The notes beneath the pieces were generated by a model. The model saw nothing but the letters and a program-made list of their open reading frames with translations, was not told the DNA's origin and did no database searches. The position numbers and the translations under genes are program-made. A stretch of DNA of 64,000 nucleotides from Bacteroides sp. (GTDB lineage: Bacteria; Bacteroidota; Bacteroidia; Bacteroidales; Bacteroidaceae): contig JAJQAY010000083.1 in NCBI GenBank assembly GCA_021203515.1, positions 3,665 to 67,664 on the forward strand, given 5' to 3'. Positions 3,076 through 59,900 of this stretch are shown here, piece by piece. Every line of letters starts with the position of its first letter. Within the stretch, counting starts at the first letter, position 1.

Positions 3076-3675
3076 ATGGTCGTATCAAAGACAAAAGCTA
3101 AATTAGTGGATGTGGCGCGGCAGTTGTTTGCCAAGATGGGCGTTGAAAATACCACGATGAATGATATAGCCCTTGCTTCTAAAAAAGGTAGGAGGACACT
3201 CTATACCTATTTTAAAAGTAAGGAGGACATCTATATGGCTGTTGTCGAATCGGAACTGGATATGCTTTCGGATATGATGAAGCATGTAGCGGAGAAAGAC
3301 ATCTCGCCGGATGAGAAGATGATTGAAATGATTTATACGCGGCTCGATGCGGTGAAGGAGGTGGTGTTTCGTAACGGTACGCTGCGTGCCAACTTCTTCC
3401 GGGACATATGGCGTGTGGAGAAAGTACGCAAGCGGTTTGATGCAAAGGAGATACAGCTTTTCAAAGACGTTCTCCGGGAGGGTGCGGAGAAAGGAGTGTT
3501 CCAGATAGACGATATCGACATGACCGCCGAATTGGTGCATTATAGTGCGAAGGGAATTGAAGTTCCTTATATACGCGGTCATATCGGGGTCAACCTGGAT
3601 GACGCAACCCGTGATAAATATGTCGTCAACATTGTGTTTGGCGCACTGCATAGAAAAGAAAATATTAATCAATAA
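3076..3675 (+). CDS. TetR/AcrR family transcriptional regulator
   Basis: N-terminal HTH ARQLFAKMGVENTTMNDIALASKKGRRTLYTYFKSKEDIY. 199 aa. Confidence 0.88.
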   Translation: MVVSKTKAKLVDVARQLFAKMGVENTTMNDIALASKKGRRTLYTYFKSKEDIYMAVVESELDMLSDMMKHVAEKDISPDEKMIEMIYTRLDAVKEVVFRNGTLRANFFRDIWRVEKVRKRFDAKEIQLFKDVLREGAEKGVFQIDDIDMTAELVHYSAKGIEVPYIRGHIGVNLDDATRDKYVVNIVFGALHRKENINQ

Positions 3676-4533: not shown

Positions 4534-5208
4534 ATGACTGTCGTATACGAGGACAATCATATTATTATAGTCAACAAGACCGCTTCCGAGATAGTTCAGG
4601 GAGACAAGACGGGTGATACGCCGCTTTCGGAAACCGTAAAGCAGTATCTGAAGGAGAAATACCAGAAGCCCGGTAATGTCTTTGTAGGTGTTACCCACCG
4701 CCTGGACCGCCCCGTAAGCGGTCTTGTTGTTTTCGCCAAGACCAGCAAGGCGCTCGCCCGCCTGAACGAAATGTTCAAGAACAGCGAAGTGAAGAAGACC
4801 TACTGGGCTGTGGTGAAGAATCCGCCTCGCACGGAGGAGGGGGGACTGGTGAATTATCTGGTGCGCAACGAGAAACAAAACAAAAGCTATGCGTACGACA
4901 AAGAAGTACCGAACAGCAAGAAAGCAATCCTGCACTACCGGCTCATCGGGAAGTCGCAAAACTATTATCTGCTGGAGATAGACCTCAAGACGGGGCGTCA
5001 TCATCAGATACGGTGCCAGTTGGCAAAGATGGGGTGTCCTATCAAAGGCGATTTGAAGTACGGCTACCCCCCCCGTTCCAATCCGGACGGAAGCATCTGC
5101 CTGCATGCACGTTTTGTCCGCTTCGTGCATCCGGTATCCAAGGAAATGATAGAAGTGGAAGCACCCGTTCCCTCCGGTAATCTGTGGAACGGCTTTGAGA
5201 TATTCTGA
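4534..5208 (+). CDS. RluA family pseudouridine synthase
   Basis: Catalytic motif HRLDRPVSGLVVFAKT and the downstream block GRHHQIRCQLA. 224 aa. Confidence 0.88.
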   Translation: MTVVYEDNHIIIVNKTASEIVQGDKTGDTPLSETVKQYLKEKYQKPGNVFVGVTHRLDRPVSGLVVFAKTSKALARLNEMFKNSEVKKTYWAVVKNPPRTEEGGLVNYLVRNEKQNKSYAYDKEVPNSKKAILHYRLIGKSQNYYLLEIDLKTGRHHQIRCQLAKMGCPIKGDLKYGYPPRSNPDGSICLHARFVRFVHPVSKEMIEVEAPVPSGNLWNGFEIF

Positions 5209-5230
5209 TAACCTTTTAAACTAAATTTCA

Positions 5231-42783: not shown

Positions 42784-44686
42784 CTATTCTTTTATACAGC
42801 GGATGGAAAGAGCGATATAAAAGTCCTTGTTCTTAGCTAAATTACTGCCACGAGCAATCTCATTCATATTTCCCATCATGAGAATGGCTTCATCGGCAAG
42901 CGTCCCTCCAGCGTTTCCACTTATCCAGTAGGCGGCTGCCGTACCGGTATTTCGACGCTTTTGTGTTCCATTATCTCCAACATTGAATAATCCGTTGGAT
43001 AAGAAACTTAATCCGGTTTGGTTGGTGGCAGGGAGGGCTTCTGCTCCACTGAAGCTTTCTCATGTTGCGGCTTTCAGGAGGGCAGTTTCGTAATTCTCCA
43101 GTTTTTCCCAATCGGAACTATTCGGGATTTTCCAACCTTCAGGGGGCTAACTCACCGTCAAGAAGAGCTTCTCCATTATAGAAGAAGACGTTGCCATACT
43201 TGAAGTAACCGGCTTCTTTACCTAATTCATCTATTGAGGAGAGAGGCTTTCTGTTTTGATAACAAGTTGCCCGCAAGTCTTCTTTCATCCAATATTGCGT
43301 ACCTATTTTTACGATGGGATAGGTTTCCAGTATTCCGCTTCGCAAGTCTCTGATGGTGTAGCTGCTTACGTTGATGGACAAGGCTGTTGCAGGCTTTTCA
43401 AAAACAATGTTTTTGTTGTTGTCGATATAAAACTTCTCAATCGGTTTAGAGTGTCCGGCTGTATAATTTAAGGAGCTATTTTGTGTATCCCAGCATACGG
43501 AACCGCCATGTATCAAGGCCGCTTTGTCCGGTAGCTGGAGAACAACCCCTTTAGTCAAGTCGGTCTGTTCGTTGTCCAACACAGGATAAACCACAATGGC
43601 TTTGGAACCGAATGTCTTATCGTCGGTCTGGAGGTATTCGCGGCAAACTTCGGCTATAGGGTTTCCCTGATAATAAACCCTGTATACGTCGGATGTGCTG
43701 AATGAGAAAGAGGCTGTGTGAACGGCAGTGATGTTGTAATCATTCTCGCCGGTTGCCTTTTCATTGAAACTCCATTCTTTGATATTAGCGACTATACCCG
43801 TCAATGCCTTGCTTGTGCTTTGCAGTGCATCGATGCGGATTTCCAATTCCGTATCGCTTTTGACAGTAGCCGAAGACATGGAGCAAGTGTATATTTTGCC
43901 ATTCCATTCCAGTGTGAATGCTTGGTTGCTGTTGGGGTGTGTCTGCGGGATGATAATAAACTCTTTGCCCGTCAATGTGCCGTCATCTTGCTCCTTCCAT
44001 TTTCCGAAAAGGGATAATATCTGCCTCACTATCTTCTACCAATCCTGACAATTCTCCCGATTGCAGGTCGTATATAACTTGGGTCTTGAAGCCGGTAGTA
44101 ACGATTCTGGGATTGACCTTAAGCATATCGTTCACGTTCTCTCCTTTTTCGGGAGCAAGTACGATGTTGATTTTTGCCAGTCGGTGCTTGTATTCCAGTT
44201 CTACAGTTTCCTTGCTGTTACGCACTTCCTCGATGTTGGCAGTCATGAAGTTGGATAGGGCGTAGTTTTGCGAATTGCTCTGATTGGTTTGCACTGCGAT
44301 ATTCAGGAGAGTACTTCCTTGGGAAATGCCTTCGGCTTGATAAGGGTAGTAACTGATAAAGTCCAGCGTGGCATCGCCTTCGGGATAGAACACTTCCTTT
44401 TGCGGGGTTAGGGTAGAGCCTTCTCCGCAAGCTAGACGCAGATTATTGATGTAGCGCTGTTGGTCCAAGGAATTATTCGTCAGCATGGCGAATAGTCCCA
44501 TTTGGTCTCCAACCTCAAAAGTGCTTTGTGTAGCCTTGGTGGTGCTTTTACTGATTTTGGTGGAGAAGGAAATGGGGATACTCCCCTCCTTTATCTCATC
44601 TTCAATTTTGTTGATGCAGGATGCACTGAACAGGGCGCAAAAATGAGTGATATATTCAATGCCTTTCCTAAATAGCAGTTTTTCAT
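42784..44686 (-). pseudogene. Fimbrillin-family lipoprotein with C-terminal FISUMP domain, at least 3 frameshifts and 1 nonsense codon
   Basis: Lipobox ...HFCALFSASC. FISUMP motifs are KIGTQYWMKEDL and LAPEGWKIPNSSDW. Shifts are at the T5/A5 run 44679-44683, near 44000-44013 and at the G5 run 43142-43146. An in-frame TGA at 43060-43062 sits where Trp is expected (KAATwESFSG). Confidence 0.78.
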
Positions 44687-44977
44687 TCTAATATTATTTG
44701 TAAGGCGGATTAAGTATCCGTCTTAGGTTTATGTTTAAAAATGGTGTGTCTAAATGTTAGATTGAGCGGTACCCGGAGAGCAGGGGAAGTCGGTGCTTTT
44801 CTTTCTTCTTTTTTGGCACAAATTGTTAAAAACGGGGGTAAATGTATACTAATATTTCGTATTGTGAACCCTAAATCAATAAAAACTTCTCTAAATAATT
44901 TATGGCACTCTGATTTTTTGCCTAACTTTATACGCTAAAATCGTATATAGTAATTAGTTAAACCATAGAATACGCTT

Positions 44978-45895
44978 ATGCCTTTAAATTTACCCGATAA
45001 GCTTCCTGCGATAGAACTGCTGAAAGAGGAGAATATTTTCGTGATTGACAACTCGCGTGCCACTCAACAGGACATCCGCCCTCTACGTATTGTCATATTA
45101 AACCTGATGCCGCTGAAGATTACAACGGAGACGGACTTGGTGCGTTTGCTTTCCAATACCCCGTTGCAGGTGGAGATTTCATTTATGAAAATCAAGAGTC
45201 ACACGTCTAAGAATACTCCGATAGAACACATGAAGACTTTCTATACGGATTTCGAGAAGATGCGCGGCGAGAAGTACGACGGTATGATTATCACCGGTGC
45301 ACCCGTGGAACAGATGGACTTTGAGGAAGTGACTTACTGGAAGGAGATTACTGAAATCTTTGACTGGGCGCGCACGCACGTCACATCTACGCTTTATATC
45401 TGCTGGGCGGCACAGGCAGGGCTGTATCATCATTACGGAGTGCCCAAGTATGCTTTGGACAAGAAGATGTTCGGTACCTTCGAGCACCGTCCGCTGAACC
45501 CTCCGCATCCTATATTCCGTGGGTTCGACGATGTGTTCTATGTTCCCCATAGCCGCCATACCGAAGTGCGGAGAGAGGATATTCTGAAAGTTCCCGAATT
45601 GACGTTGCTTTCGGAGTCTAAAGATGCCGGTGTGTATATGGCAGTGGCTCGTGGCGGTCGCGAGTTCTTCGTGACCGGTCATTCGGAGTATTCCCCCTTG
45701 ACGCTGGATGGTGAATATCGTCGTGATTTGGATAAGGGATTGCCCATTGAGATGCCGCGCAATTATTATGTGGACGATAATCCCGACAAGGGTGTGCTGG
45801 TTCGTTGGCGTGCCCACGCCAACTTGCTGTTCTCCAATTGGCTGAACTACTTTGTATATCAGGAAACGCCTTATAATATTAATGATATTGTATAA
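44978..45895 (+). CDS. metA: Homoserine O-acyltransferase MetA (succinyl/acetyl)
   Basis: 305 aa matching MetA along the full length ([21 protein letters not shown]...[15 protein letters not shown]...GHSEYS). Confidence 0.93.
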
Positions 45896-45898
45896 ATT

Positions 45899-45964
45899 CA
45901 CTACGAATTAACACAGATTTTCCGGATGATTATAATCTGTGATAATCCGTGTTAATCTGTAGTG
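45899..45964. repeat. REP-like hairpin element, arms of (A)ACACAGATT-type sub-repeats
   Basis: CACTACGAATTAACACAGATT...AATCCGTGTTAATCTGTAGTG with an inner pairing. It lies between the metA stop and the U32 ATG. Confidence 0.8.
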
Positions 45965-45972
45965 CAGAGATT

Positions 45973-47821
45973 ATGATAAAGCAACGTAAAATAGAATTGC
46001 TGGCTCCTGCCAAGAACCTGGAATGTGGCATCGAAGCGATTAATCACGGGGCGGACGCGGTGTATATCGGTGCGCCTAAGTTCGGTGCACGTGCGGCAGC
46101 GGTCAATTCGCTGGAAGACATTGCGGCTTTGGTGGAATATGCACATATATATAATGTACGCATCTACGTCACGGTCAATACCATCCTGAAAGAAGAGGAA
46201 CTGGCGGAGACAGAGCAGATGATTTGGGAATTATATCGTTTGGGCGTAGACGCACTGATAGTGTAGGATATGGGGATTACCCGCCTCCACCTGCCACCCA
46301 TACCCCTACATGCCAGCACGCAGATGGATAACCGTACACCGGAGAAAGTCCGTTTCCTGAAAGATGCCGGCTTCCGCCAAGTGGTATTGGCGCGTGAGCT
46401 TTCGTTGCAGGATATCCGCCGCATTCACGATGCTTGCCCGAAGTACCTCTCGAAGTATTTGTGCATGGCGCACTCTGCGTCAGCTATAGCGGGCAGTGCT
46501 ATGTCAGCCAGGCCTGCTTCAGTCGAAGTGCCAACCGGGGAGAATGTGCGCAGTTCTGCCGGTTGCCGTTCAGCCTTGTCGATGCCGACGGGAAGACGAT
46601 TGTGCGCGACAAGCATCTGCTATCCCTGAAAGACCTCAACCAGAGCGAAGTGCTGGAAGACCTGCTCGATGCAGGCGCTTCTTCCCTGAAGATAGAGGGG
46701 CGGCTGAAGGACGTTTCGTATGTAAAGAATGTCACTGCCGTCTATCGCCGGAAACTGGATGCTATCTTTGCCCGTCGCAAGGAGTATGTCCGTGCCTCTT
46801 CCGGTACTTGTCATTTCGACTTCACTCCCCAATTGGACAAGAGTTTCAGCCGGGGCTTCACCCACTACTTCCTGCAAGGCCGCGAGCAGGGAATATCCTC
46901 TTTCGATACTCCCAAGTCTCTGGGCGAGGAGATGGGAACGATGAAGGAGCAGCGTGGCAATTATCTGACCGTGGCAGGCGTGAATCCTTTCCATAATGGA
47001 GACGGCGTATGCTTCCTCGATGAGCAGGGCCGTCTGCAAGGCTTCCGCATCAATCGTGTGGACGGAAACAAGCTATATCCCGCGGGAGAGATGCCCCGCA
47101 TCAAGCCCCGCACCCTCCTTTACCGTAATTTCGACCAGGAGTTTGAGCGTGTGCTTGCCCGCAAATCGTCCGAACGGAAGATAGGTGTTAGCCTGGAGTT
47201 GGCCGCCACTTCGTTCGGCTTTAGCCTGACGGCTACGGATGAAGACGATAATCGCGTGACGCTGTCCTTTCCTTATATAAAGGAACCGGCACGTACACCG
47301 CAGGTGGATAACCTCCGGACGCAATTGAGCAAACTGGGTAACACCCCGTTCGAGGTGAGACTACTCCTGAAGGACTCCCCGGCTTCATTGTCCGCTTCCC
47401 GGAGAACTGGTTTCTGCCTGCTTCGGTGGTTGCCGACTGGCGCAGACAGGTGATAGACAAACTGATTGCCGCCCGGCGCATCACCTATCGTCGCGAACTG
47501 GCCGTGTGGAAGCCGACGCGCCATGCCTTTCCTGCCGCCTCGCTCACTTATCTGGGAAATGTGATGAACAACCCTGCCAGGAACTTCTATCTCGAACATG
47601 GAGTTGCCTCGGTGGCTCCGGCTTACGAAAAGCAGGCGGTGCCCGATGCGGTGCTGATGTTCTGCAAGCATTGCCTGCGCTATAGCATGGGTTGGTGCCC
47701 GACGCATCAGAAAGGGCGCTCCTCTTATCGCGAACCCTATTATCTGGTGAGAACGGACGGCAAGCGTTTCCGCCTGGACTTTGACTGTAAACATTGCCAG
47801 ATGAAAGTATATGCAGAGTAG
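45973..47821 (+). pseudogene. Peptidase U32 family protein, in-frame TAG plus two frameshifts
   Basis: Blocks IELLAPAKNLE, GADAVYIGAPKFGAR and FVHGALCVSYSGQCYVSQ. The TAG at 46264-46266 (ALIV*DMG) sits at an expected Gln. Shifts are near 46440 (G/GG) and at the C-run 47377-47380. Confidence 0.85.
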
Positions 47822-47849
47822 TGAGATACGTGGAATAGAAGAAAGAGGT

Positions 47850-48878
47850 ATGCGGACGGATGAGAATAAAACGCAGATTAACGCAGATTTATGCAAAGAT
47901 TTCCCTTCTCTGCGTAACTCTGCGTTAATCTGCGTTTTACTATTGCTTGCCTGTTGCCTGGCTTCTTGCCACTATCCCCGCCCCAATCTGGAAGACGAAA
48001 CCTTGAGTGCCCGCACCCGCGACTCCCTGGCTTATCTCTACGAACGGCATTATACTTGGGACACCAATCTGGAAGTTCAGGATGACTCCGTCACCATCGC
48101 CTGCCTGCCGGTGAAGGACTGCTACAACACGCTCCACAAGGGCGACCGCGTGGTCGTGGCAGAGTTTGCCGTTCATCCTGCCGATAGCGTGGATAGCGTC
48201 TGGGTGAAGCTGGCCCACTCGCAAGAGGTGCAGGGCTGGATACGGGAGTCGGATATGATACGCGCCTTTGTCCCGACGGACAGTATTTCGCAATCCATCT
48301 ACTTGTTCAGCGATACACATGCTTCTTACTTCATCGTTATCTTCGCGTTGTTTGTGGCGGTGTGGCTGTTTCGTGCTTTTCGCCGCAAGCAATTGCAGAT
48401 GGTCTATTTCAATGATATTGACAGTGTGTATCTGCTGTTGCTGTGTCTGCTGATGGCGTTCAGCGCCACCGTCTACGAGTCGATGCAGGTATTCGTGCCG
48501 GAGACGTGGCAGCACTTTTATTTTAATCCCACGCTGTCGCCATTCCGGGTGCCGTTCGTGCTGTCCGTCTTCCTGATGAGCCTTTGGCTGTTCGTCGTGG
48601 TGCTGCTGGCGGTGCTCGATGATTTGTTCCGTCAACTCAGTCCGGCCGCTGCCGTGTTCTATCTCCTGGGACTAGCTTCGTGTTGCATCTTCTGCTACTT
48701 TTTCTTTATTCTGACCACACACATCTACGTGGGTTATCTGTTTTTGGGCGTATTCGTCTACGTATTTCTGCGAAAGCTGCACGCTTCGCTGTCGGTGTCG
48801 CGCTATCGCTGCGGGCATTGCGGGCAGAAGTTGCGGGTGAAAGGCGTATGTCCGCATTGCGGGGCTATCAACGAGTGA
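47850..48878 (+). CDS. Hypothetical membrane lipoprotein-like protein with SH3-like segment and C-terminal zinc ribbon
   Basis: Signal/lipobox-like ALICVLLLLACCLASC, several TM helices, C-terminal CGHCGQKLRVKGVCPHCG. The start is uncertain (ATG 47811 or 47850). The 5' end lies inside a hairpin element. Confidence 0.6.
   Translation: MRTDENKTQINADLCKDFPSLRNSALICVLLLLACCLASCHYPRPNLEDETLSARTRDSLAYLYERHYTWDTNLEVQDDSVTIACLPVKDCYNTLHKGDRVVVAEFAVHPADSVDSVWVKLAHSQEVQGWIRESDMIRAFVPTDSISQSIYLFSDTHASYFIVIFALFVAVWLFRAFRRKQLQMVYFNDIDSVYLLLLCLLMAFSATVYESMQVFVPETWQHFYFNPTLSPFRVPFVLSVFLMSLWLFVVVLLAVLDDLFRQLSPAAAVFYLLGLASCCIFCYFFFILTTHIYVGYLFLGVFVYVFLRKLHASLSVSRYRCGHCGQKLRVKGVCPHCGAINE
47868..47938. repeat. 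REP-like hairpin element (ACGCAGATTA class) inside the 5' coding region of the membrane protein gene
   Basis: AAAACGCAGATTAACGCAGATTTATGCAAAG...CTCTGCGTAACTCTGCGTTAATCTGCGTTTT. Confidence 0.85.
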
Positions 48879-48946
48879 CGGCTTGAGGTGTAGCCGAAGC
48901 ATACTCTCCTCCCTATCTTATCCATACTCTCCTAGTACATTAGCAT

Positions 48947-49031
48947 ATAATCAATGCGGATGATTACTACAATCATGTATAATGATTGTGGCAATCATCC
49001 GTATTGATTGTATCAATCATCCTACATGATT
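48947..49031. repeat. REP-like hairpin element, arms of CAATCAT/ATGATTG sub-repeats
   Basis: ATAATCAATGCGGATGATTACTACAATCAT-GTATA-ATGATTGTGGCAATCATCCGTATTGATT, plus extra CAATCAT copies. Confidence 0.8.
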
Positions 49032-49092
49032 GTCGGCTGATGTCCGGCCTTTGCCGGGATGAGGTAGGGCATCGGCATGGCAAAGGTAGTGA

Positions 49093-51525
49093 TTAGAAGC
49101 GGCAACGCAACTCTATCCCTGCCTGCACGGGGCGACCCTTCTGCATGAAACCGTTGCCCATGCTCTCGAAGTAGAAGGCGGCATAGTCCTTGTCCAGTGC
49201 GTTGCGTACCCAGAAGTCCACTTGTCCGCGACCTTTCTGGAAGCTGACGCGGCCGTTGAGCGTGCCGTAGAAGGATTGGCTCACCAGGTTTTCTTCTGTC
49301 CAGTAGATGCGTCCGGCTCCGGTGTAGTTGACGTTCAGTTGGATGCGGTCTAGCCAGTGGCCCGGGTTGATGCGGAAGATGTATTGACCGCCCAGGGTGA
49401 GGGTGTGCTTGGGCACGAAGGGGACGTAATTGCCGTTGTAGCTTACCTCCTGCAACTGTCCGCCGACGCGGGCGTTCGCCACGTAGTCCTTGAAGGTGGC
49501 ATAAGTGTAGCCGTAGCTGGCGTTCAGCGTGAAGTCCGTGGTGACGGCAAGGGCAAGGGCAAGCTCGGCACCGAGGCTGCGGCTCTTTCCGGCATTTACC
49601 GTTTCACGCCCCAGGCCGCTTTGGGCGAAACGGGAGATTTGCTGGTCGCGCGTATCGAGCCAGAAGAGGGCGGCATCGGTGTGCAGGCGATTGCCGAAAA
49701 GGTTCAGGTGGGCTCCTATTTCGTAGTTCCAGGTCTGTTCGGGTTTGTATACGGTGGCGGCGCTGACATCCGGGTTCTCTCCGGCATTGGGGAAGTTCTG
49801 GTCTACCAAGTCTTTGTAGGCGTCCGGCACGTGGGGCATAATTTCATCTTTGGATTGCCGCATCATGTCGTTGCGCAGGCTGGACTGCAAGAGGTCGGAG
49901 AGCATCTGGATGTTGTATCCGCCGGAACGGTAACCTTTGCTGACGGTGGCGTAGACGTTTCCCGCGTTGTTCTTGAAGTCGTATTGCAGGGCGAACTTCG
50001 GCAGCAGTTGCAGGTAGTCCTTGTCCATGCTGCCCTGATAGCGCGACTCCACGGTGAGGGCCGTTTCGGGCATCATGGCTATCTCGCGGATGACGTTCCC
50101 ATTTTGTACCATCTCTCCCTTGATGCCTACGGTGTAGTCCATAGCGGTTCCGGAGTTGTAGTCCATTTTCATGCGTTCATAGTCCAGTCGCAATCCGGCC
50201 GTGAAGGATAATCCGTCGAGGCCGAACAAGTCCCTGAACGTGGACTGGTGGAAGATGGCCCCGTTCAGTAGCGGAGTGTCGAAGTTGCCGTTGATGGGCA
50301 GACGCTGGCTGGTGATTTGCAGAGACGGCAGGATGTTCATGCTCATGGTCGGCCCCATAGGCACTTGTATCTGCGAGGGGATTACGCCGCCTAGCATCTG
50401 GCTCATCATGCTCATTCCGTCTTCCTTGAAAGTGACCGGAGCATCTGTCTTTAGCCATTGATAGAAGCCGAAAGCACCCGTGACCCACTGCCAGCGGCCG
50501 TTGCCTTTGCTCTTCAGGGTGATTTCTTCGCTCAGGGTGTGGATGCGTTGCCGTTGTTCCAGCGTATAGATATTGGCGGCCGTGAAGTCCTGGTCGAGGA
50601 ACATGCGGTCTTTCAGATATTGATAGCCGGTGACGGCGCTCAGTGTGAAGTGACGTGCCTGATATTCCAGGTTCAATCCGGTGTTGAGCAGGTTGCGGTA
50701 GTAGCTGCTCTCTTCGTTGTAGGCGGGTTGGGCAACGTTGCCCGTTGCCCGGTCATAGAGCCCGTAGGGGTATCCGCCCTGGTCACTGTACTCGTAGCTG
50801 ACGTTGAGGTCGACTTTCCAATTCTCCGTGGGCAGGTAGATGCCACGGAAACGCCCTCCGGCGGACTGGCCTTTGTCTATCTTCTTGTTGCTGAGCGCTG
50901 CGTTGCGGAAGAAGCCCCCTTGATAATCGTAGAAGCCTCCGGTGGAGAAGGTAAAGCGTTCAGAAGTGCGGTGATAGTGGGTGATGGAGGCGTTGTAGGC
51001 GTTGTGCGTGCCTGCACCCATGCGGAAGTCCGTGCCCTGATAGGAGAAGGGTGACTTGGTATGCATCTTTATCAGTCCGCCCATGGCGTTGCGGCCGTAC
51101 AGCGTTCCTTGCGGACCGCGCAGTGCGTCGATGCGCTCGATGTCGGAGTAGTTGAAGTCGAAGGCGGACTTGTCGATGTAGGGGATGTTGTCTACATACA
51201 GTCCGATGGACGGCGTATTGATGCGCGAGCCGATGCCGCGGATGTAAACGGCGGAGGTGAGTCGTGAGCCGTAATCGGGGATGAACATATTGGGTACAAG
51301 TCCCGTGAGGCTTTTTATCGAGTTGACTTGCGCGGCCTGCATGTCTTGTTGGGAGAGCAGGGTGACGGCAGTGGGTTGCTCGCGAAGCTTGCGGTTCTCC
51401 TTGGGAGCCGCGATGACGAGGATTTCTTCTACGTCTACTACTTTCAATGTGTCCACTTCTTCTGCCAATACGTTTCCGGCAGTCAGGACGGTCATAATCA
51501 GGGTGAAAATCTTGTATCTATTCAT
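49093..51525 (-). CDS. TonB-dependent receptor (siderophore/metal-type, no SusD partner)
   Basis: Signal peptide MNRYKIFTLIMTVLTAGNVLA, plug block DALRGPQGTLYGRNAMGG, C-terminal barrel ending ...IELRCRF. The upstream part of ORF 49093-51576 is unlikely to be coding. Confidence 0.9.
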   Translation of the reverse strand: MNRYKIFTLIMTVLTAGNVLAEEVDTLKVVDVEEILVIAAPKENRKLREQPTAVTLLSQQDMQAAQVNSIKSLTGLVPNMFIPDYGSRLTSAVYIRGIGSRINTPSIGLYVDNIPYIDKSAFDFNYSDIERIDALRGPQGTLYGRNAMGGLIKMHTKSPFSYQGTDFRMGAGTHNAYNASITHYHRTSERFTFSTGGFYDYQGGFFRNAALSNKKIDKGQSAGGRFRGIYLPTENWKVDLNVSYEYSDQGGYPYGLYDRATGNVAQPAYNEESSYYRNLLNTGLNLEYQARHFTLSAVTGYQYLKDRMFLDQDFTAANIYTLEQRQRIHTLSEEITLKSKGNGRWQWVTGAFGFYQWLKTDAPVTFKEDGMSMMSQMLGGVIPSQIQVPMGPTMSMNILPSLQITSQRLPINGNFDTPLLNGAIFHQSTFRDLFGLDGLSFTAGLRLDYERMKMDYNSGTAMDYTVGIKGEMVQNGNVIREIAMMPETALTVESRYQGSMDKDYLQLLPKFALQYDFKNNAGNVYATVSKGYRSGGYNIQMLSDLLQSSLRNDMMRQSKDEIMPHVPDAYKDLVDQNFPNAGENPDVSAATVYKPEQTWNYEIGAHLNLFGNRLHTDAALFWLDTRDQQISRFAQSGLGRETVNAGKSRSLGAELALALAVTTDFTLNASYGYTYATFKDYVANARVGGQLQEVSYNGNYVPFVPKHTLTLGGQYIFRINPGHWLDRIQLNVNYTGAGRIYWTEENLVSQSFYGTLNGRVSFQKGRGQVDFWVRNALDKDYAAFYFESMGNGFMQKGRPVQAGIELRCRF

Positions 51526-51609
51526 AATTGGTTTTGTTTCGACTGCAAAGTAAGGGGAAATCGACGGAGTGGGCAATCCTCATTTATTAGGATTTCGGGG
51601 GGGAAGAGG

Positions 51610-51783
51610 TTCACCACAGAGTACACAGAGTCTCACAGAGGGATTTATATTCAAACGCAGATTAACGCAGATTTTCGCAAAGCAAACTCTAATTATATAA
51701 ATAATCTGCGTGAATTTGCGTTAATCTGCGTTTCTTTAATTTTTTCTTTAAACTCTGTGAGACTCTGTGTCCTCTGTGGTGAA
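51610..51783. repeat. Nested hairpin elements: a CACAGAG-class outer hairpin with an ACGCAGATTA-class hairpin in its loop
   Basis: Outer arms 51610-51640 and 51753-51783 are 31 bp with 1 mismatch. Inner arms are about 51652-51682 and 51700-51733. Confidence 0.88.
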
Positions 51784-51786
51784 ATC

Positions 51787-52350
51787 TTAAATGCGGTCTG
51801 CCTCGATGTATCCGTGCATCACCGCGTAGATAGTCAGTCCTGCTACAGACTTGATGCCCAGCTTTTCCACGATATTCTTGCGGTGGGAAATAACGGTGGT
51901 CAGGCTGATGTTCAACTTGTCGGCAATCTCTTTGTTGATGAGGCCTTTGGTGATGAGTACCAGTACTTCTATTTCGCGGGCGGAAAGGTCGTGCTCGCCC
52001 GGATGTCCGTGCTGGTGTCCGTGCTGATGCAGTTGTAGGATGGCCTTTATTAGGCTCTTCTCGTCCTGATAAATGTTAAGAGTGGGCGCTCCTGATAGTT
52101 GAGGCTGATTGTCGCCACCCGCCAGCACTATGATCTTCGGCTTGCGGGGCAGGAAGAATGCGGTATGCTCGAAATAGATTTGTGCGGAGATGAAATAGTG
52201 GGCATACATATCGGGCGTATCGTCCATCAGTTGTTCGAAAGAGTGGAACGCACGGATAGTCGCCATCGGGATGATTTCTTCCAGAAGGTTCTGCAAACCC
52301 AGACATTCCAGCGTATTAGGGTCGATGATGGCTATCTCGGGGACGTTCAT
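51787..52350 (-). CDS. LuxR/GerE-family transcriptional regulator with a degenerate (pseudo-)receiver domain
   Basis: C-terminal HTH LSAREIEVLVLITKGLINKEIADKLNISLTTVISHRKNI. The N-terminal REC-like fold lacks an obvious phospho-acceptor Asp. The linker is His-rich (HQHGHQHGHPGEH). Confidence 0.82.
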   Translation of the reverse strand: MNVPEIAIIDPNTLECLGLQNLLEEIIPMATIRAFHSFEQLMDDTPDMYAHYFISAQIYFEHTAFFLPRKPKIIVLAGGDNQPQLSGAPTLNIYQDEKSLIKAILQLHQHGHQHGHPGEHDLSAREIEVLVLITKGLINKEIADKLNISLTTVISHRKNIVEKLGIKSVAGLTIYAVMHGYIEADRI

Positions 52351-52425
52351 GGTTATTTTTAGATTTGGTCGTAAAGATACGGATTTCAGTATAGATTACA
52401 CAGATTTATATTATTAAAACGCAGA

Positions 52426-54048
<1,623 letters not shown>

Positions 54049-54050
54049 TT

Positions 54051-54080
54051 CACCACAGATTACACAGATTAACACAGATT
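54051..54080. repeat. Left arm of a perfect 30-bp inverted repeat flanking the GxxExxY gene
   Basis: CACCACAGATTACACAGATTAACACAGATT. The exact reverse complement is at 54503-54532. Confidence 0.95.
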
Positions 54081-54455
54081 TTAAATAATATATCTGTGAA
54101 TACCTGTTTGTAAGTTTATAACGTTGAAATTAATTAGTAGGCCTAAATTATGCTCTGATAATCTGAGATAGGTCATAAGTTGGGCTGTATGTATAGGTAA
54201 TAAGGTCTCTACGGATTTTAGTTCAAGGATAATTGTATTTTCTACTAAAACATCCATTCTATAACCGTTGCTTAATGTGATTCCCTTATAATTAATAGGC
54301 AGGTCCTTCTGTTTCTCGAATTTTATACCTTGCTTTTCAAATTCGTAACATAAACATGCTTCATAAGTACTTTCTAAAAGTCCTGGTCCTAATGCTTTAT
54401 GAACTTCATAAGCACAACCTATAATCTTATATGATAAGTCATTAATATCTTTCAT
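54081..54455 (-). CDS. GxxExxY protein (PD-(D/E)XK nuclease-like superfamily)
   Basis: The GLLESTYEACL motif matches GxxExxY, and the 124-aa size is typical. The likely start is MKDINDL at 54455. The TTG-start extension to 54482 lies in the 11-bp repeats. Confidence 0.85.
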   Translation of the reverse strand: MKDINDLSYKIIGCAYEVHKALGPGLLESTYEACLCYEFEKQGIKFEKQKDLPINYKGITLSNGYRMDVLVENTIILELKSVETLLPIHTAQLMTYLRLSEHNLGLLINFNVINLQTGIHRYII

Positions 54456-54457
54456 TG

Positions 54458-54501
54458 CAATCAGTCTCCAATCAGTCTCCAATCAGTCTCCAATCAGCCT
54501 C
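54458..54501. repeat. Four tandem copies of the 11-mer CAATCAGTCTC directly 5' of the GxxExxY start
   Basis: Copies are at 54458-54468, 54469-54479, 54480-54490 and 54491-54501. The last copy is CAATCAGCCTC. Confidence 0.9.
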
Positions 54502-54502
54502 C

Positions 54503-54532
54503 AATCTGTGTTAATCTGTGTAATCTGTGGTG
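54503..54532. repeat. Right arm of the perfect 30-bp inverted repeat
   Basis: AATCTGTGTTAATCTGTGTAATCTGTGGTG. It ends 3 nt before the radA stop codon. Confidence 0.95.
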
Positions 54533-54535
54533 AAT

Positions 54536-55903
54536 TTAACCGAATAGCGTTCTGAACGCCTCTTCTACCTTTCTCACCGGCACCAATTCTATTTTTATTT
54601 TAGAAGTATTCAGTCCCTGCATATTATATTTCGGCAATATAAACCGCTTGAAACCCAACTTTTCAGCTTCGCCGATGCGTTGTTCGATCCTATTCACCGG
54701 GCGAATTTCTCCTGATAACCCGATTTCCCCCGCCATGCAGACTTCCGGTTCTATTGCCGTATCCATATTGCTGGACAGGATGGCGCTGATAACGGCAAGA
54801 TCTATCGCCGGATCATTCACCTTCAGCCCTCCGGCAATGTTAAGGAATACATCCTTTTGGGCAAGCTTGAAGCCGACCCGTTTCTCCAATACCGCCAATA
54901 ACATATTCATTCTCCGGGTGTCGAAGCCTGTAGCGGAACGTTGCGGATTACCGTATACGGCACTGCTAACCAATGCCTGCGTCTCTATCAGGAATGGACG
55001 TATGCCCTCTATTGCCGAAGCGATAGCGACACCGCTCATGCCCTCGTGATCTTGGCTCAACAGTAACTCCGACGGATTGTCAACCTGCCGCAATCCATCC
55101 TGCCGCATCTCATAGATGCCCAACTCTGCCGTACTTCCGAAGCGGTTCTTGATACTGCGCAGGATGCGGTACATATAATGCTGGTCGCCATCAAACTGCA
55201 ACACCGTGTCTACGATATGCTCCAAAACCTTCGGCCCGGCAATACTGCCTTCCTTATTGATATGCCCGATAAGAATTACCGCCGTATGCGTTTCTTTGGC
55301 AAACCGCAGGATGGAAGCCGAGCACTCCCGCACCTGCGCAATGCTTCCCGGTGACGATTCGAGTGTTTCCGTAGAAATAGTTTGGATAGAGTCTATGATA
55401 ACCAGGTCCGGATGTGTATTCTTGATGTGCACGTAAATCTGTTCCAATGATGTTTCGCAGACAATAAGGCAATCGTTGGAAGTCTGCGCCAGCCGGTCGG
55501 CGCGCAACTTTAACTGACGGGCACTTTCCTCGCCCGAAATATATAGGATTTTCTTTTCAGGTATTTGCATCACTGTCTGCAATACTAAAGTCGATTTCCC
55601 GATACCCGGCTCACCGCCTATCAGTACGAGGGAACCTTGTACCAATCCGCCTCCCAGCACCCGGTTCAACTCTACATCATGCAGGTCGATGCGCGGTTCG
55701 TCGTCAGCTTCTATTTCGCTCAGTGTCACAGGCTTTGCCTTGGCGGTTTCTATGCCCGATGTCGGTCGCTTGTCCACCACCTCTTTGCGCATCACCTCTT
55801 CCACATACGTATTCCACGCTCCGCACGACGGACACTTCCCAATCCATTTGGGCGAGTCTTGTCCGCAGTTACTGCATACATAAACCATTTTTTCTTTTGC
55901 CAT
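54536..55903 (-). CDS. radA: DNA repair protein RadA (Sms)
   Basis: Zinc finger CSNCG...CPSCGAWNT, Walker A GGEPGIGKST, KNRFG motif, Lon-protease-like C-terminal domain. 455 aa. Confidence 0.95.
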   Translation of the reverse strand: MAKEKMVYVCSNCGQDSPKWIGKCPSCGAWNTYVEEVMRKEVVDKRPTSGIETAKAKPVTLSEIEADDEPRIDLHDVELNRVLGGGLVQGSLVLIGGEPGIGKSTLVLQTVMQIPEKKILYISGEESARQLKLRADRLAQTSNDCLIVCETSLEQIYVHIKNTHPDLVIIDSIQTISTETLESSPGSIAQVRECSASILRFAKETHTAVILIGHINKEGSIAGPKVLEHIVDTVLQFDGDQHYMYRILRSIKNRFGSTAELGIYEMRQDGLRQVDNPSELLLSQDHEGMSGVAIASAIEGIRPFLIETQALVSSAVYGNPQRSATGFDTRRMNMLLAVLEKRVGFKLAQKDVFLNIAGGLKVNDPAIDLAVISAILSSNMDTAIEPEVCMAGEIGLSGEIRPVNRIEQRIGEAEKLGFKRFILPKYNMQGLNTSKIKIELVPVRKVEEAFRTLFG

Positions 55904-55932
55904 ATTAAAGAATTTCCTTTAGAATGATTGCC

Positions 55933-55940
55933 CAAAGGTA
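55933..55940 (-). promoter_or_regulatory. -7 box TACCTTTG for radA
   Basis: Minus-strand TAnnTTTG match 30 nt upstream of the radA ATG. Confidence 0.45.
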
Positions 55941-56187
55941 CGATTTTTCATTGCAGTGCCGATAGGGTGCTACAGAGTTTTTCTATGAGCAGGTAGAAAA
56001 ATAGTATAGTATGGTTGGTGGTATCTGAAAATATTATTGGGCAATATGCCTAGAAGATGCTTTGCATACTACTTGAGGATATTCAGGAAGCAATTATAAT
56101 AACCTGCGATGATTTAGAAAGAGAGAGATTGATGGGAATGTTATGGAGATTTTATCTATTTCAGTACAGAGGTGGGACTGTATTTGG

Positions 56188-56205
56188 AGTTCTAGCAGAA
56201 CTTAA
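56188..56205. repeat. Left copy of an 18-bp perfect inverted repeat (AGTTCTAGCAGAACTTAA)
   Basis: The exact reverse complement is at 56798-56815. It has an internal dyad AGTTCT-nnn-AGAACT. Confidence 0.9.
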
Positions 56206-56329
56206 GAGCATAAAAAGAGGGAAACTTGGCATTAAGAACATGCCGACAATGTTTTTCTTTGAAATTTGTCTTCATAGCTTTTTGATTTAATTTGGTTTCT
56301 AAAATTGCATTTAGTACTTTAAGGCGTTG

Positions 56330-56337
56330 CAAATGTA
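56330..56337 (-). promoter_or_regulatory. Only TAnnTTTG box (TACATTTG) inside the IR-bounded segment, facing away from susC
   Basis: The plus strand reads CAAATGTA. I found no other TAnnTTTG on either strand in 56206-56797, and none between 56816 and the susC ATG. Confidence 0.4.
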
Positions 56338-56797
56338 TTTAAGTTCCGTTAAATACCGAAAGGGAAATAAACATATTCTCACCTTATTTACAACATTTAA
56401 CTATTTAAAAAGCTTTATATATCTCTACTAGTAAATAAATATGTTTAATAATTCACCTGTTAGCTCTGCTGTTTATGTGTATTTACTACTTTCTTATTCT
56501 ATTCCATCTCTAATATTATAAAATATTAATTATTAATTGCCAAACCCTGCCTTTGCTGTGAAAACCGCTTGATTATTGGTAAAATCAGATGTTTTTCTAT
56601 AATGATTTATTTATGTTAAAAATGAGCACTGGCATTCTTATATGGATTGTTGGACTTTTTTCTACCGAAGCACAAAAGAAGGCTGCTAATATTTATTTAG
56701 TAGCACCAACTAATTATTAAATGTGGCAGGGGTAGACTTGTGTGGTCTGGTTAGGCCGGTAGATGCTTTAGAAAAAGCAAAACAGGAAAAGTTCTTT

Positions 56798-56815
56798 TTA
56801 AGTTCTGCTAGAACT
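56798..56815. repeat. Right copy of the 18-bp perfect inverted repeat (TTAAGTTCTGCTAGAACT)
   Basis: Reverse complement of 56188-56205, 127 bp upstream of the susC-like ATG. Confidence 0.9.
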
Positions 56816-56941
56816 AATTTCAATTATTTTTTTACTCGTTTTCCCCATGAAGTAGTTTTAAAAGGAATAGAGAGCTTTTCTTTTGTGAAGAAATAAATCT
56901 TTTCTTAAAACATGTGTTTAATTAATGTAACAGACTTAAAA

Positions 56942-59900
56942 ATGAATTTACGAATTGTTTGTGGACAACGATGCTCAAGGCCTAAGGTTTTGACGGCATT
57001 TTTACTCCTTTCTCTCTTTGCGCCTGTCACTATTTCCGCTAATGCGACGGATACGGATGCTACGGAAGTTGTGCAACAGCAAAAGGAACAGACTATTACC
57101 GGTACGGTGATTACCGGTGACACGAATGAACCGGCGATTGGAGCTACTATTTATTTGAGGAATAGTACCACGGGTGCTATTACGGATGTAAACGGTAAGT
57201 ATACTATTACGGTAGAAGGTATAGGAGGCATATTGGAATTCTCTTATATAGGATATAAGAAACAGGAAGTGGACATTGCCAACCAGAAAACTATAAATAT
57301 CACCTTACTACCGGATACTGAAGTATTGGACGAAGTGGTGGTTGTAGGTTATGGCAGCCAGAAGAAAGAGAGTGTAGTTGGTGCCATCTCTACTTTGGAT
57401 GTCACTAAATTGACTGTACCGGGCGCATCCATATCAAACGCACTGGCCGGGCAGCTTTCAGGCATCGTTTCTATGAGCCGTTCAGGTGAACCGGGCAAGA
57501 ACAGTGCCGCCGATTTCTATATCCGAGGTGTGTCGTCCTTTACGGGAACTACTTCTCCGTTGGTTTTGGTGGATGGTATCGAGCGTGACCTCGACCTGGT
57601 AGATACGGATGACATTGCTGCCTTCTCTATTTTGAAGGATGCTTCGGCTTCCGCTGTATATGGTGTACGCGGTGCCAACGGTGTTATCTTGATTACCACC
57701 AAAAAGGGTACTGTAGGTAAGCCGCAGATTAATGTACGTACCGAATTCGGTCTCACCCAGCCTACAAAGAAACCTAAAATGTTGGGATCTGCCGAATGGG
57801 CCGAACTTTATAACGAGGCTTATTCAAAGGAATATTATACTCAGTCTGATATTCAGAAATACCGCGACGGCAGTGACCCGGACCTCTATCCGAATGTAAA
57901 CTGGTTCGATGCTCTGTTTAAAGATGCGGCTGTCAATCAGAATGTAAAACTGAACATTACAGGTGGTAGTGACATCGTGAAGTATTATATCTCCGGTTCG
58001 TTCTACAATGAAAGTTCTATTTACAGAACGGCCGGGAATATTTACGGTTATGACTCTTCCATCCGATATAATAAATTTAACTTCCGTGCAAATGTAGACT
58101 TGAATTTGACTAAGAGCACAGTGGTTAACTTTAACTTGGCGAACATCTACGAGAAGTCGTTCGGCCCCGGATTTGGTGATAAAGACTCGGATATTTGGTC
58201 ATACACATTCCTTACTTCGCCTAATGCTTATCCGGTGGAATACTCCGATGGCAAGCTTTCAGGCCCCTCTACCGACTCCGGTTATAATCCCTGGAACATG
58301 TTGGTTTACTCCGGATACCGCGAGCAGTTCTGGAATTCAGCCCAGTCTCTTATCGGTATTACTCAGGACATCGGTGCGTTGTGGAAACCGTTGGAAGGAT
58401 TGACTGCCAATATTAAATTCTCCTGGGATGCTTGGAATACCACCACACAACGCCGTTCAAAAACTTCTTCTTACTATCATGCCCGCGGACGTAAAGATGA
58501 CGGCAGCTTGAGGTATGATGAAGAAGACGGTGTTCCGGTACCCGTACATACAGGTAGTGAAGACCTGAGTTTCAACATCGGACGTGACGGAACCATGACA
58601 CGTTACGTAGAGGGTTCGTTGAACTATAGCCGTTTATTCAATAATGTGCACCGCGTGGGTGCTTTGTTCCTTTACAATCATAAGATTTATACAAAGACCC
58701 AGGCCGGCAGCAGTAATGAAGCATTGCCTCATAAAAATCAAGGTATAGCCGGTCGTGTTACTTATGCCTTCCGCGATACTTACTTTGGTGAAGTGAATAT
58801 GGGTTACAACGGTTCTGAAAACTTCGCTCGCGGTCACCGCTTCGGTTTCTTCCCGGCATTTGCTGTGGGCTGGATGGTTTCCAATGAAAAATGGTTTGAA
58901 CCCGCCACTAAGGTTGTGGATATGTTGAAGTTAAAAGCTTCTTACGGTAAAGTAGGTAATGACAATATCGGCGGTAACAGAAGATGGGCCTATGAATCGA
59001 GCATTGTGAGCGGTAATAGCTGGAATTATGGTAACAGCGGTGGTAACGGTGGCGGCAGTCTTATCATGGGTGAGGTGGAGAACCTTACCGTTTCTTGGGA
59101 AGAAGCCAAGAAATTTAATGCCGGTGTAGAATTCTCCTTATTTAATAAGGTGAAAGTGTAGGCCGATTATTTCCGTGAAGAGCGCGTCGGTATTTTCTTG
59201 CAACGTTCCGGATTGCCCGCTATCGTGGGTATATCTACTGTTCCTTATGTCAATGTGGGTGAAACGCTAAATCAGGGTTTTGATGCCAGCGTTGAATATA
59301 CGCATCAGATTGACAAAGTGTTGGTTACTGCCCGCGGCAACTTTACCTTCAACCGTAATGAATTGAAAAATAACGATGAGCCCGATTGGAAATACAAATA
59401 CCAAAATAAGATAGGAAAGCCTTTCGGTTCGGACGGTTATCTTCAGCCCTTCGGTTTGGTAGCCCTTGGCTTGTTCGAGAGTGAGGAAGAAATAGCCAAC
59501 AGCCCCGTTCAGAACTATGGCGAGTATCGCGTAGGTGATATCAAGTATAAAGATGTGAATGGTGGCGGTAAGATAGACGACTTGGATAAAGTGGCTCTCG
59601 GATATACCAATTTGCCGGAAATCACTTATGGATTTGGTGCGACAGCCCAGTGGAAAGGTTGGGGCTTCAACGTCTTCTTCCAGGGAGTAGCCCGTACCAG
59701 CTTCTTCCTCAGCGGCTCTTCTATCCGCAGTCCGTTCTCGTCAGGTAATGCAGATCGTGGAGCTCTCAACTCGGATATATATGGTAATGTATGGATGTCT
59801 ACCAATACACCCGAACAAAATGCCAATGTCGCCTATCCGCGCCTCAGTGCCGGTAGTGGTGGCGCCGGTGCTTCCAATAACTCGCAGACTTCTTCATGGT

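Follow-up and report, generated by a model that had tools for sequence, protein, structure and literature searches.

A GxxExxY nuclease gene enclosed by inverted arms of short tandem units in Bacteroides, a member of an apparently undescribed cassette family

Between the gene for the DNA repair protein RadA and that of a FAD-dependent oxidoreductase, a Bacteroides contig (JAJQAY010000083.1 of assembly GCA_021203515.1; the 64,000 nucleotides from position 3,665 to 67,664 are hereafter called the window) carries a single small gene of the GxxExxY family, which lies inside an inverted repeat constructed like gene-less hairpins found elsewhere in the same DNA. The question raised by this locus is whether gene and hairpins belong together. 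An earlier sequence-only reading had proposed that the bracketed gene may be an autonomous form of the local hairpin elements, by analogy with the repetitive extragenic palindromic (REP) sequences of enterobacteria and pseudomonads and the transposases associated with them (RAYTs). The results of our analysis indicate that the 486-bp unit belongs to a family of compact cassettes that is large and apparently undescribed. [quoted passage not shown] That the GxxExxY nuclease generates or moves such hairpins is plausible, with real counter-indications that are weighed below.

The cassette at the radA junction

The cassette and its host genes are arranged as follows, in the order of transcription and with the coordinates of the window:

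54536..55903, minus strand: radA (DNA repair protein RadA; TIGR00416, 1.5e-178), the upstream host gene
54503..54534, no strand assigned: 5' (upstream) arm in the orientation of the gene, from the repeat search
54458..54501, minus strand: four tandem 11-nt units (spacing 11) between the 5' arm and the ATG
54081..54455, minus strand: GxxExxY gene, 124 aa plus stop (ATG at 54455, TAA at 54083-54081; PF13366 7e-45, TIGR04256 1.7e-47)
54049..54080, no strand assigned: 3' (downstream) arm, exact reverse complement of the 5' arm
52426..54048, minus strand: FAD-dependent oxidoreductase (PF21688, 1.6e-67), the downstream host gene

The arms located by the repeat search (54049-54080 and 54503-54534) have 32 nt each, are 100% complementary and enclose 422 nt. 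The perfect inverted repeat of 30 bp reported by the sequence-only reading was therefore real and slightly understated, because the outer TT/AA pair belongs to it too. An inverted repeat of 32 nt without mismatch inside 1 kb is no product of chance, and the arm pattern ACACAGATTNNCACAGATT (with up to two mismatches) has seven occurrences in the window versus 0.01 expected. Repeat, open reading frame (ORF) and profile searches likewise agree with the earlier statement that the interval holds solely the 124-aa ORF and four tandem units. With the radA stop at 54536 and the oxidoreductase ATG at 54048, the 486-bp unit fills the 487-nt spacer (54049-54535) except for 1 nt, so that the description of the unit as nearly the whole spacer also holds. 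This single nucleotide separates the cassette from the radA stop codon (TAA); at the other end the stop codon of the GxxExxY gene directly adjoins the 3' arm, and the oxidoreductase ATG comes immediately after the GGTGAA outer end of that arm. All three genes lie on the minus strand and no terminator-like site was found between radA and the oxidoreductase gene. A mechanical ORF list places the oxidoreductase start at GTG 54075 (MLICVICGE...), with the arm translated as read-through; its homologues in all species begin at the ATG equivalent to 54048.

Read on the minus strand, the 5' arm is TTCACCACAGATTACACAGATTAACACAGATT, namely three tandem CACAGATT units with a period of 9-10 nt and the outer end TTCACCAC. 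The 11-nt units that follow it read CAATCAGTCTC on the plus strand and GAGACTGATTG / GGAGACTGATT on the strand of the gene, three being exact and one having a T>C change. This tandem is absent from the orthologous cassettes at L001, L017, L019, L048, L076 and L167 (L numbers denote the loci compared here), in which the arm is followed by the ATG within 3-20 nt, and the four-unit array is a lineage-specific expansion. The resemblance of its unit to the arm unit (xxCAGATT vs xxCTGATT) suggests local slippage or duplication as its source. The window contains no other GxxExxY gene, and a protein identical (100%) to its single copy is on record from a metagenome-assembled genome of a Bacteroides sp.

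The protein matches PF13366 with 152.6 bits (cut-off 22) and TIGR04256 with 160.6 bits (cut-off 35), in both cases over its full length and above the curated cut-offs. The motif that gives the family its name is G25-L-L-E28-S-T-Y31, with G25, E28 and Y31 invariant in 46 diverse members; the whole set of invariant or near-invariant residues comprises G23, G25, E28, Y31, E38, D68, E78, K80, Q92, Y96 and N109. Invariant D68 and E78-x-K80 make up a D...ExK set of catalytic type, and after the ExK strand there is a QxxxY motif (Q92-L-M-T-Y96) in which Y96 is invariant and Q92 invariant or nearly so. The AlphaFold (AF2) model of the protein has a pLDDT of 95.6, and its best Foldseek matches are Cas4 SSO0001 (E=8e-4, TM ~0.5), lambda exonuclease and RecE, with weak matches to Hjc, tRNA-splicing endonuclease and a homing endonuclease. 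By its predicted fold, the protein can be classed with confidence as a minimal RecB/Cas4-like PD-(D/E)XK nuclease. A sequence search of the PDB with the window protein gave no match, relatives being found by fold comparison alone. Cas4 proteins are characterized by four conserved Fe-S-binding cysteines and by association with cas genes. Identity with Cas4 was considered and rejected: the protein has no conserved Fe-S cysteines, the PADLOC Cas4 match reaches merely E=0.006, and the neighbours are radA and the oxidoreductase gene, not cas genes. Libraries of defence systems (PADLOC) and phage families (PHROGs) returned nothing beyond this weak match. In a survey of PD-(D/E)XK proteins published in 2012, PF13366 was listed as a family of unknown function with multiple transfers.

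Arms and genes in other genomes

The sequence-only reading had suggested that the radA spacer be compared among close strains for presence or absence of the cassette. A RadA scan with one genome per species, which gave 80 Bacteroidaceae loci, shows that the whole cassette is indeed polymorphic in this respect. In B. cellulosilyticus the orthologue, which is 82% identical, is present on over 1,000 contigs and has entries in 1,627 index blocks of the contig collection, occupies the same junction and has the same arms with two mismatches and no 11-nt tandem. Every complete GxxExxY gene at the junction (22 distinct junction sequences) is bracketed by inverted arms made of three to four tandem units of 8-10 nt. 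In about 45 species the radA spacer measures 1-114 nt (for example T, AT or ACATT) and has neither a GxxExxY gene nor arms, with faint arm remnants in a few of these empty spacers (L056, L066 and L067). The oxidoreductase of species without the cassette starts 1-20 nt past the radA stop. One locus, L058, retains the arms around an internally deleted gene. Gene and arms are gained and lost together at this junction, and the unit of gain and loss is therefore the arms plus the gene. Filled and empty states are interleaved on the tree of RadA plus oxidoreductase, and the sister species L019 and L016 have different cassette types. Three arm types are present at the junction and match three protein clades, with the following protein identities to the window:

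CACAGATT arm type: 72-82%
CGCAGATT arm type: 67%
CACAGAG(G/T) arm type: 54-59%

The stop codon of radA differs between the two states of the junction: TAA ends the gene in 32 of 40 empty junctions but only in three of 22 filled ones, where TGA occurs in 12 cases and TAG in seven (Fisher p=5e-7, not corrected for phylogeny). At several filled loci GGGTGA abuts TTCACC directly, giving a GGTGA/TCACC palindrome.

Close homologues of the window protein (P0004, P0072, P0089 and P0100, 75-82% identical) are all located at the same radA-oxidoreductase junction, and within the clade with CACAGATT arms the nonsynonymous divergence (dN) of the protein scales with that of the flanking oxidoreductase. The ratio of dN to synonymous divergence (dS) of the GxxExxY gene lies between 0.03 and 0.10 where computable, synonymous sites being saturated (dS >1 or not computable). 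Despite this saturation the 30-nt arms are 87-100% identical between species; for instance, the window and L017 differ by a dS of 1.23 and have both arms 100% identical, and both arms of L019 carry a change that is compensated (CACGGATT / AATCCGTG). Protein and arm sequence are therefore both under constraint.

The GxxExxY family as a whole comprises 23,232 clusters at 50% identity (E<=1e-3). Eighty environmental loci with proteins 51-66% identical were fetched by means of an alignment of diverse members, and most of their genes are bracketed by inverted arms that begin at the outer end with (T)TCACCAC(A/G)(G/A)AG and continue inward with CACAGAG, CACGAAG, CACGGAG, CGCAGAG, CGCCGAG or CACAAAG units, at a period of 8-11 nt. 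The conserved outer end of the arms is TTCACCAC(A/G)(G/A)AG. Whether GxxExxY genes are systematically flanked in this way, another check that had been proposed for the cassette, was evaluated with a strict motif census of 97 distinct GxxExxY genes and 359 control ORFs of at least 100 aa from the same loci:

GxxExxY genes (97): both arms 51 (53%), one arm only 28, none 18
Control ORFs (359): both arms 4 (1%), one arm only 17, none 338

At least one arm is thus present at 79 of the 97 GxxExxY genes (81%) versus 21 of the 359 controls (6%). The control ORFs replaced a complementarity null based on pairing across loci, which was inflated by the likeness of arms from different loci. When about 1 Mb (all loci and the window) was screened without bias for long-range inverted repeats, 112 were found, about 100 of them with arms of this type.

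The cassettes are co-oriented with their neighbours in very short operon junctions, typically 0-10 nt after the upstream stop; the upstream gene has the same orientation in 39 of 46 cases and the downstream gene in 40 of 54. The 5' arm ends at a median of 24 nt ahead of the start codon (less than 10 nt in a quarter of the cassettes) and the 3' arm starts at a median of 8 nt past the stop codon. Many cassettes therefore have no room for a promoter of their own. Many cluster representatives of 260-295 aa (P0121-P0129 and others) contain two GxxExxY domains in tandem; they represent either genuine fusions or neighbouring cassettes that gene calling has joined.

Gene-less hairpins as relatives of the cassette

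Proteins that are 80-87% identical retain the same arm type in unrelated contexts (L120/L164, L106/L155 and L093/L132). The relation between gene-bearing and gene-less forms is best seen on contig L090, which has a GxxExxY cassette at 281-848 and a gene-less element at 2029-2311. The two have about 85 nt in common at each end, including a second internal palindrome, and their homology stops exactly at TCACCAC / GTGGTGA(A), flanks and interiors being unrelated. Fifteen contigs have further arms apart from their cassette; these arms match those of the resident cassette with a median identity of 0.88, versus 0.54 between contigs (Mann-Whitney p=6e-6). Such are the relations that one would expect if a single repeat family had autonomous and non-autonomous members. 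The idea that the bracketed gene is an autonomous form of the local hairpin elements is thus supported, in genome architecture, far beyond the window.

Within the window, the arms of the cassette are built like those of the neighbouring gene-less hairpins, as had been claimed. These hairpins are:

45899..45964, no strand assigned: gene-less hairpin of the CACAGATT type, partly degenerate
47863..47942, no strand assigned: gene-less hairpin of the CGCAGATT type (AAAACGCAGATTAACGCAGATT...AATCTGCGTTAATCTGCGTTTT)
51610..51783, no strand assigned: gene-less nested hairpin with outer CACAGAG-type arms, TTCACCACAGAGTACACAGAGTCTCACAGAG, at 51610-51640 and 51753-51783

Solo arm fragments occur in addition near 52390-52436. 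In L014 and L085, GxxExxY genes of the radA junction are likewise enclosed by CGCAGATT-type arms, and the nested element encloses an inner hairpin of this same type (about 51651-51730). Comparison with Rfam gave merely sub-threshold miRNA-like matches, because the hairpins are long perfect stems, and membership in those families was discarded.

The nested element lies directly after the stop of a GerE/LuxR-type regulator gene (51787-52350, minus strand), a site that is a second hot spot of hairpin elements in Bacteroides. When orthologous sites were compared (L016-L172), the hot spot was found empty in L036, L030, L017, L064 and L071, occupied by a short hairpin in L029, L034 and L057, by a long-loop element in L040 and L167-L172, and by a hairpin nested in a hairpin in L068 and the window. 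No GxxExxY gene is present at this hot spot in any species compared, about 25 of which have a hairpin there.

Strains with 98-100% identical flanks (L040 6704-6871 vs L167-L172, about 5185-5352) have two or three units per arm, and L172 has unequal arms with two units in the 5' and three in the 3' arm. Since the number of units varies among near-identical strains, the arms behave like minisatellites. Extra tandem copies of the terminal (C)TGTGGTGAA follow immediately beyond the 3' arm, as many as three of them in L040 (6872-6900), with others in L020 (about 7176-7195), L017 (2947-2960) and L042 (1600-1615); in L016 (about 7033-7063) a remnant made of such copies persists although the site is otherwise empty. 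Repeated insertion or loss may have left these copies as footprints.

Possible roles of the nuclease and its arms

The explanation that we favour, and that could equally well turn out right or wrong, is that cassettes and gene-less hairpins form one family in which the nuclease acts on its own arms, as RAYT does for REP and REPIN. The nuclease would be expressed by read-through from the host operon, recognize the iterated units of its own arm type, either as duplex DNA or as an extruded hairpin, and cut at the outer TCACCAC boundary or close to it. Host repair or replication could then help to copy or move whatever is enclosed by two inverted arms. The nuclease would thereby fill the role of RAYT with a different class of enzyme.

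Several observations weigh against this proposal. Hydrolytic PD-(D/E)XK nucleases are not known to effect strand transfer alone. Neither target-site duplication nor any other transposition footprint was found at the filled and empty radA junctions, around either copy on L090 or at the GerE hot spot. The window's own clade appears, from the comparisons given above, to have been vertical at one site for long, repeatedly lost and not recently mobile. About 19% of the family has no recognizable arm in the motif census, and in L106, L150 and L299 the arms are swapped or duplicated (hairpin, gene, hairpin); at these loci a complete hairpin stands on each side of the gene (1390-1500 and 1860-1980 in L299), in which the arm of 3' type comes first and that of 5' type second, upstream and downstream alike. 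Viral contigs picked by the arm motif (more than 120 loci, 955 kb) contain 86 inverted-repeat elements, mostly short hairpins, and not one GxxExxY gene, and a protein-based scan of the viral collection yielded a single GxxExxY locus (L299). Moreover, phage arms bracket ORFs other than the nuclease in the same tight geometry: CACGAAG-type arms surround an identical 99-aa ORF without Pfam match in L186 (761-1139) and L276 (2118-2496), and a DUF6527 protein in L275 (2753-3166). The cargo of the cassettes can therefore vary. Finally, the same architecture is seen with genes for four-helix-bundle proteins (PF05635), which are not nucleases.

The last point leads to the intervening sequences (IVS) of 23S rRNA, of which ORF-containing forms are known in Leptospira, Coxiella and Xanthomonas. 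The IVS of Coxiella has 428 nt with an ORF of about 120 aa encoding a four-helix-bundle (S23p) protein; inverted repeats at its borders pair to a 28-bp stem, which RNase III cuts, and beside the ORF start there are two to three tandem GACAGAT heptamers, the number of which varies among strains (PMC4990558). The PF05635 genes mentioned above were obtained with a consensus-like query, which retrieved real four-helix-bundle proteins, five of which were looked up. All five genes are co-oriented in tight operon junctions with tandem units of at least 7 nt on both sides; these units are inverted in three (L300, with GATTAGN, L303, and L306, with GTGACAA) and direct or non-complementary in two (L301 and L309). 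The cassette of the window thus belongs to a broader class of single-ORF cassettes flanked by short-unit repeats; apart from the rRNA IVS, we could find no description of any example of this class. The PF05635 (bAvd-like) loci have spacers of about 40 nt and 7-nt units such as GATTAGN, GTGACAA and GTAACAA; in L300 and L303-L305 the gene is wedged between sdhA/frdA and sdhB/frdB, and in L306-L308 between two epimerase genes.

The cassette of the window is like an IVS in its size (430-490 nt), its single ORF of about 120 aa and its terminal inverted repeats (TIRs) of about 30 bp, in the near-identical short tandem units situated around the 5' arm (GACAGAT for Coxiella and ACACAGATT here), whose copy number differs among strains, and in its sense orientation within a transcribed unit. 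It differs by lying at an mRNA operon junction, no rRNA being detected in 44000-58000 by an Rfam scan, and by encoding a PF13366 nuclease, whereas the PF05635 profile matches nothing in the window. Furthermore, the gene here is under purifying selection while the Coxiella ORF is decaying, and RNase III excision is demonstrated for the IVS, whereas the wobble test described below gave no sign of selection on an RNA stem here.

These likenesses form the basis of an alternative that we consider rather improbable, in which the arms act as RNA: a double-stranded stem in the radA-GxxExxY-oxidoreductase mRNA would be cut by RNase III, the cut either making the insertion tolerable or processing the mRNA, and the nuclease would be cargo or a selfish passenger, the element spreading in some other way. 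Such a role would be compatible with the action of the nuclease on its arms that we favour. Apart from the Coxiella IVS, with nearly the same unit and architecture, and the four-helix-bundle genes in operon junctions (units inverted in three of five), it draws on the predominant co-orientation with the upstream gene (39 of 46), on arm-start gaps (median about 24 nt) often too small for a promoter, on the lack of a terminator between radA and the oxidoreductase gene, and on the frequency of hairpins of this class between phage genes. The 32-bp stem is also kept in both the minimum free energy and the centroid fold of the cassette RNA (z = -3.7), and would be a substrate of RNase III if transcribed. 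An RNA stem maintained by selection would be expected to leave a signature of G-U pairs on the sense strand, yet no such excess was found in 77 distinct arm pairs: among 430 non-Watson-Crick positions, 83 are G-T (wobble on the sense strand), 102 are A-C and 245 are other mismatches. This result argues against selection on a sense-RNA stem, and a role at the level of DNA fits more easily. Moreover, the need for a stem, taken alone, leaves unexplained the tandem build, the outer TTCACCAC and the family-specific units, and in L301 and L309 the flanking repeats are direct or non-complementary. Unit sequence, outer end, clade-specific units and tandem build would fit better with sequence-specific recognition of iterated sites, for which the encoded protein is probably the only conserved candidate partner.

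A second alternative, quite unlikely in our view, reverses the relation between gene and hairpin, the arms being pre-existing REP-like hairpins of the host and the GxxExxY gene a selfish one that inserts into their loops as targets. A precedent exists in IS1397, which targets the loops of REP sequences and of the bacterial interspersed mosaic elements (BIMEs) that they form. The nesting at 51610-51783 and in L068 shows that loops do receive insertions; most hairpins are gene-less, many of them where no GxxExxY gene exists, and the L090 copies have common ends with unrelated interiors. Against this, none of the approximately 45 gene-less radA spacers has an intact hairpin, their arms being absent or reduced to faint remnants, and none of the approximately 25 hairpin-bearing species at the GerE hot spot shows a GxxExxY insertion. 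The arm type, besides, co-varies with the clade of the protein and accompanies the gene when it is found at unrelated loci. The least probable account, that of a domesticated host nuclease (engaged, for example, in repair beside radA or in defence) with the arms as operator or processing sites and mobility only in the past, could call upon the strong purifying selection on gene and arms while synonymous sites are saturated, the long vertical history of the clade at one site and the weak resemblance to Cas4 (PADLOC E=0.006; Foldseek Cas4 SSO0001), but it is countered by scattered and frequent loss that leaves about two thirds of the species without cassette and makes sister species differ, by the lack of any defence-system match above noise, by the cognate gene-less copies scattered in the same genomes and by the many unrelated contexts of family members, so that the link with radA is not general.

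Returning to the action of the nuclease on its own arms, the analogy with REP and RAYT drawn by the sequence-only reading stands for the architecture and fails for the enzyme. Both systems have one small gene between inverted copies of a hairpin-repeat family that is the genome's own; copies without a gene far outnumber the gene, the gene-less repeats of a contig are cognate to those around the gene, and the gene is mostly vertical at a fixed site. RAYTs are single-strand transposases of the HUH/Y1 class, related to those of IS200/IS605, whereas the sole domain here is PF13366 with a PD-(D/E)XK fold and no HUH/Y1 transposase is present. REPs of Enterobacteria and Pseudomonas are palindromes of 20-40 nt with a GTAG or CGTC tag; each arm here consists instead of three to four tandem 8-10-nt units with the outer end TTCACCAC, and the gene lies inside one hairpin, in a loop of 400 nt, at an operon junction and without promoter.

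Other known systems resemble the cassettes in part. Transposons with TIRs and their MITEs have terminal inverted repeats with iterated subterminal units too, and the gene-bearing and gene-less copies with common ends in L090, the internally deleted copy in L058, the polymorphism of presence and absence and the copies in unrelated loci are equally reminiscent of them; however, the sole product here is a 124-aa nuclease, with no DDE, serine, tyrosine or HUH transposase, and no target-site duplication is seen. Among homing endonucleases, I-Ssp6803I has a PD-(D/E)XK fold. Genes of this kind are similarly small nuclease genes at a precise site, with filled and empty states intermixed along the host tree and entire protein clades tied to one site, but they do not require terminal inverted repeats, are usually devoid of them and give rise to no gene-less hairpin copies at unrelated sites. 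Integron cassettes are comparable in being promoter-less single-ORF units that are expressed from outside and bounded by imperfect inverted repeats acting as folded structures, and in having variable cargo, as do the phage cassettes; here, though, there is neither an integrase nor an attI platform, two arms flank the ORF in place of one adjacent attC, and the units are dispersed in operon junctions, not arrayed. BrickBuilt, a MITE of P. gingivalis, was considered as a relative and set aside as unrelated, since it has IS5-type TIRs.

No description of the association between GxxExxY genes and hairpins was found in the searchable literature (family names, arm sequences, and MITE, REPIN or RAYT in combination with Bacteroides), in agreement with the earlier remark that the link seemed undescribed. 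The cassette family is real and apparently undescribed, either as a gene-plus-hairpin repeat system of the RAYT/REPIN type or as one akin to IVS. In the former case, it would be a second such system built on a different enzyme. The link between gene and hairpin makes a function testable for the first time in an orphan family of very large size, namely binding or cleavage of its own arm units, and offers an origin for a class of repeats that is common in gut Bacteroides, in many environmental bacteria and in phage contigs. The IVS-like architecture also touches a question that dates from the early 1990s, namely how the intervening sequences of 23S rRNA arise and move. We would venture, with considerable doubt, that GxxExxY nucleases drive a pan-bacterial class of mobile hairpin/TIR elements working without DDE, HUH, serine or tyrosine recombinase, that they recognize arrays of 8-10-nt units and have spawned the CAC(R)(R)AG hairpins of Bacteroidota, many other phyla and phages, and that the 23S rRNA IVS constitutes a sister branch; if true, the latter would explain the origin of IVS.

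A practical consequence concerns genome annotation. Many single-domain members of the family have N- or C-terminal extensions that resemble translated arm repeats (for example ...SPVSPVS or ...SLRPLR). Cassettes and hairpins of this kind probably explain many spurious small ORFs and false start extensions in annotated genomes, such as the GTG start at 54075 in the window.

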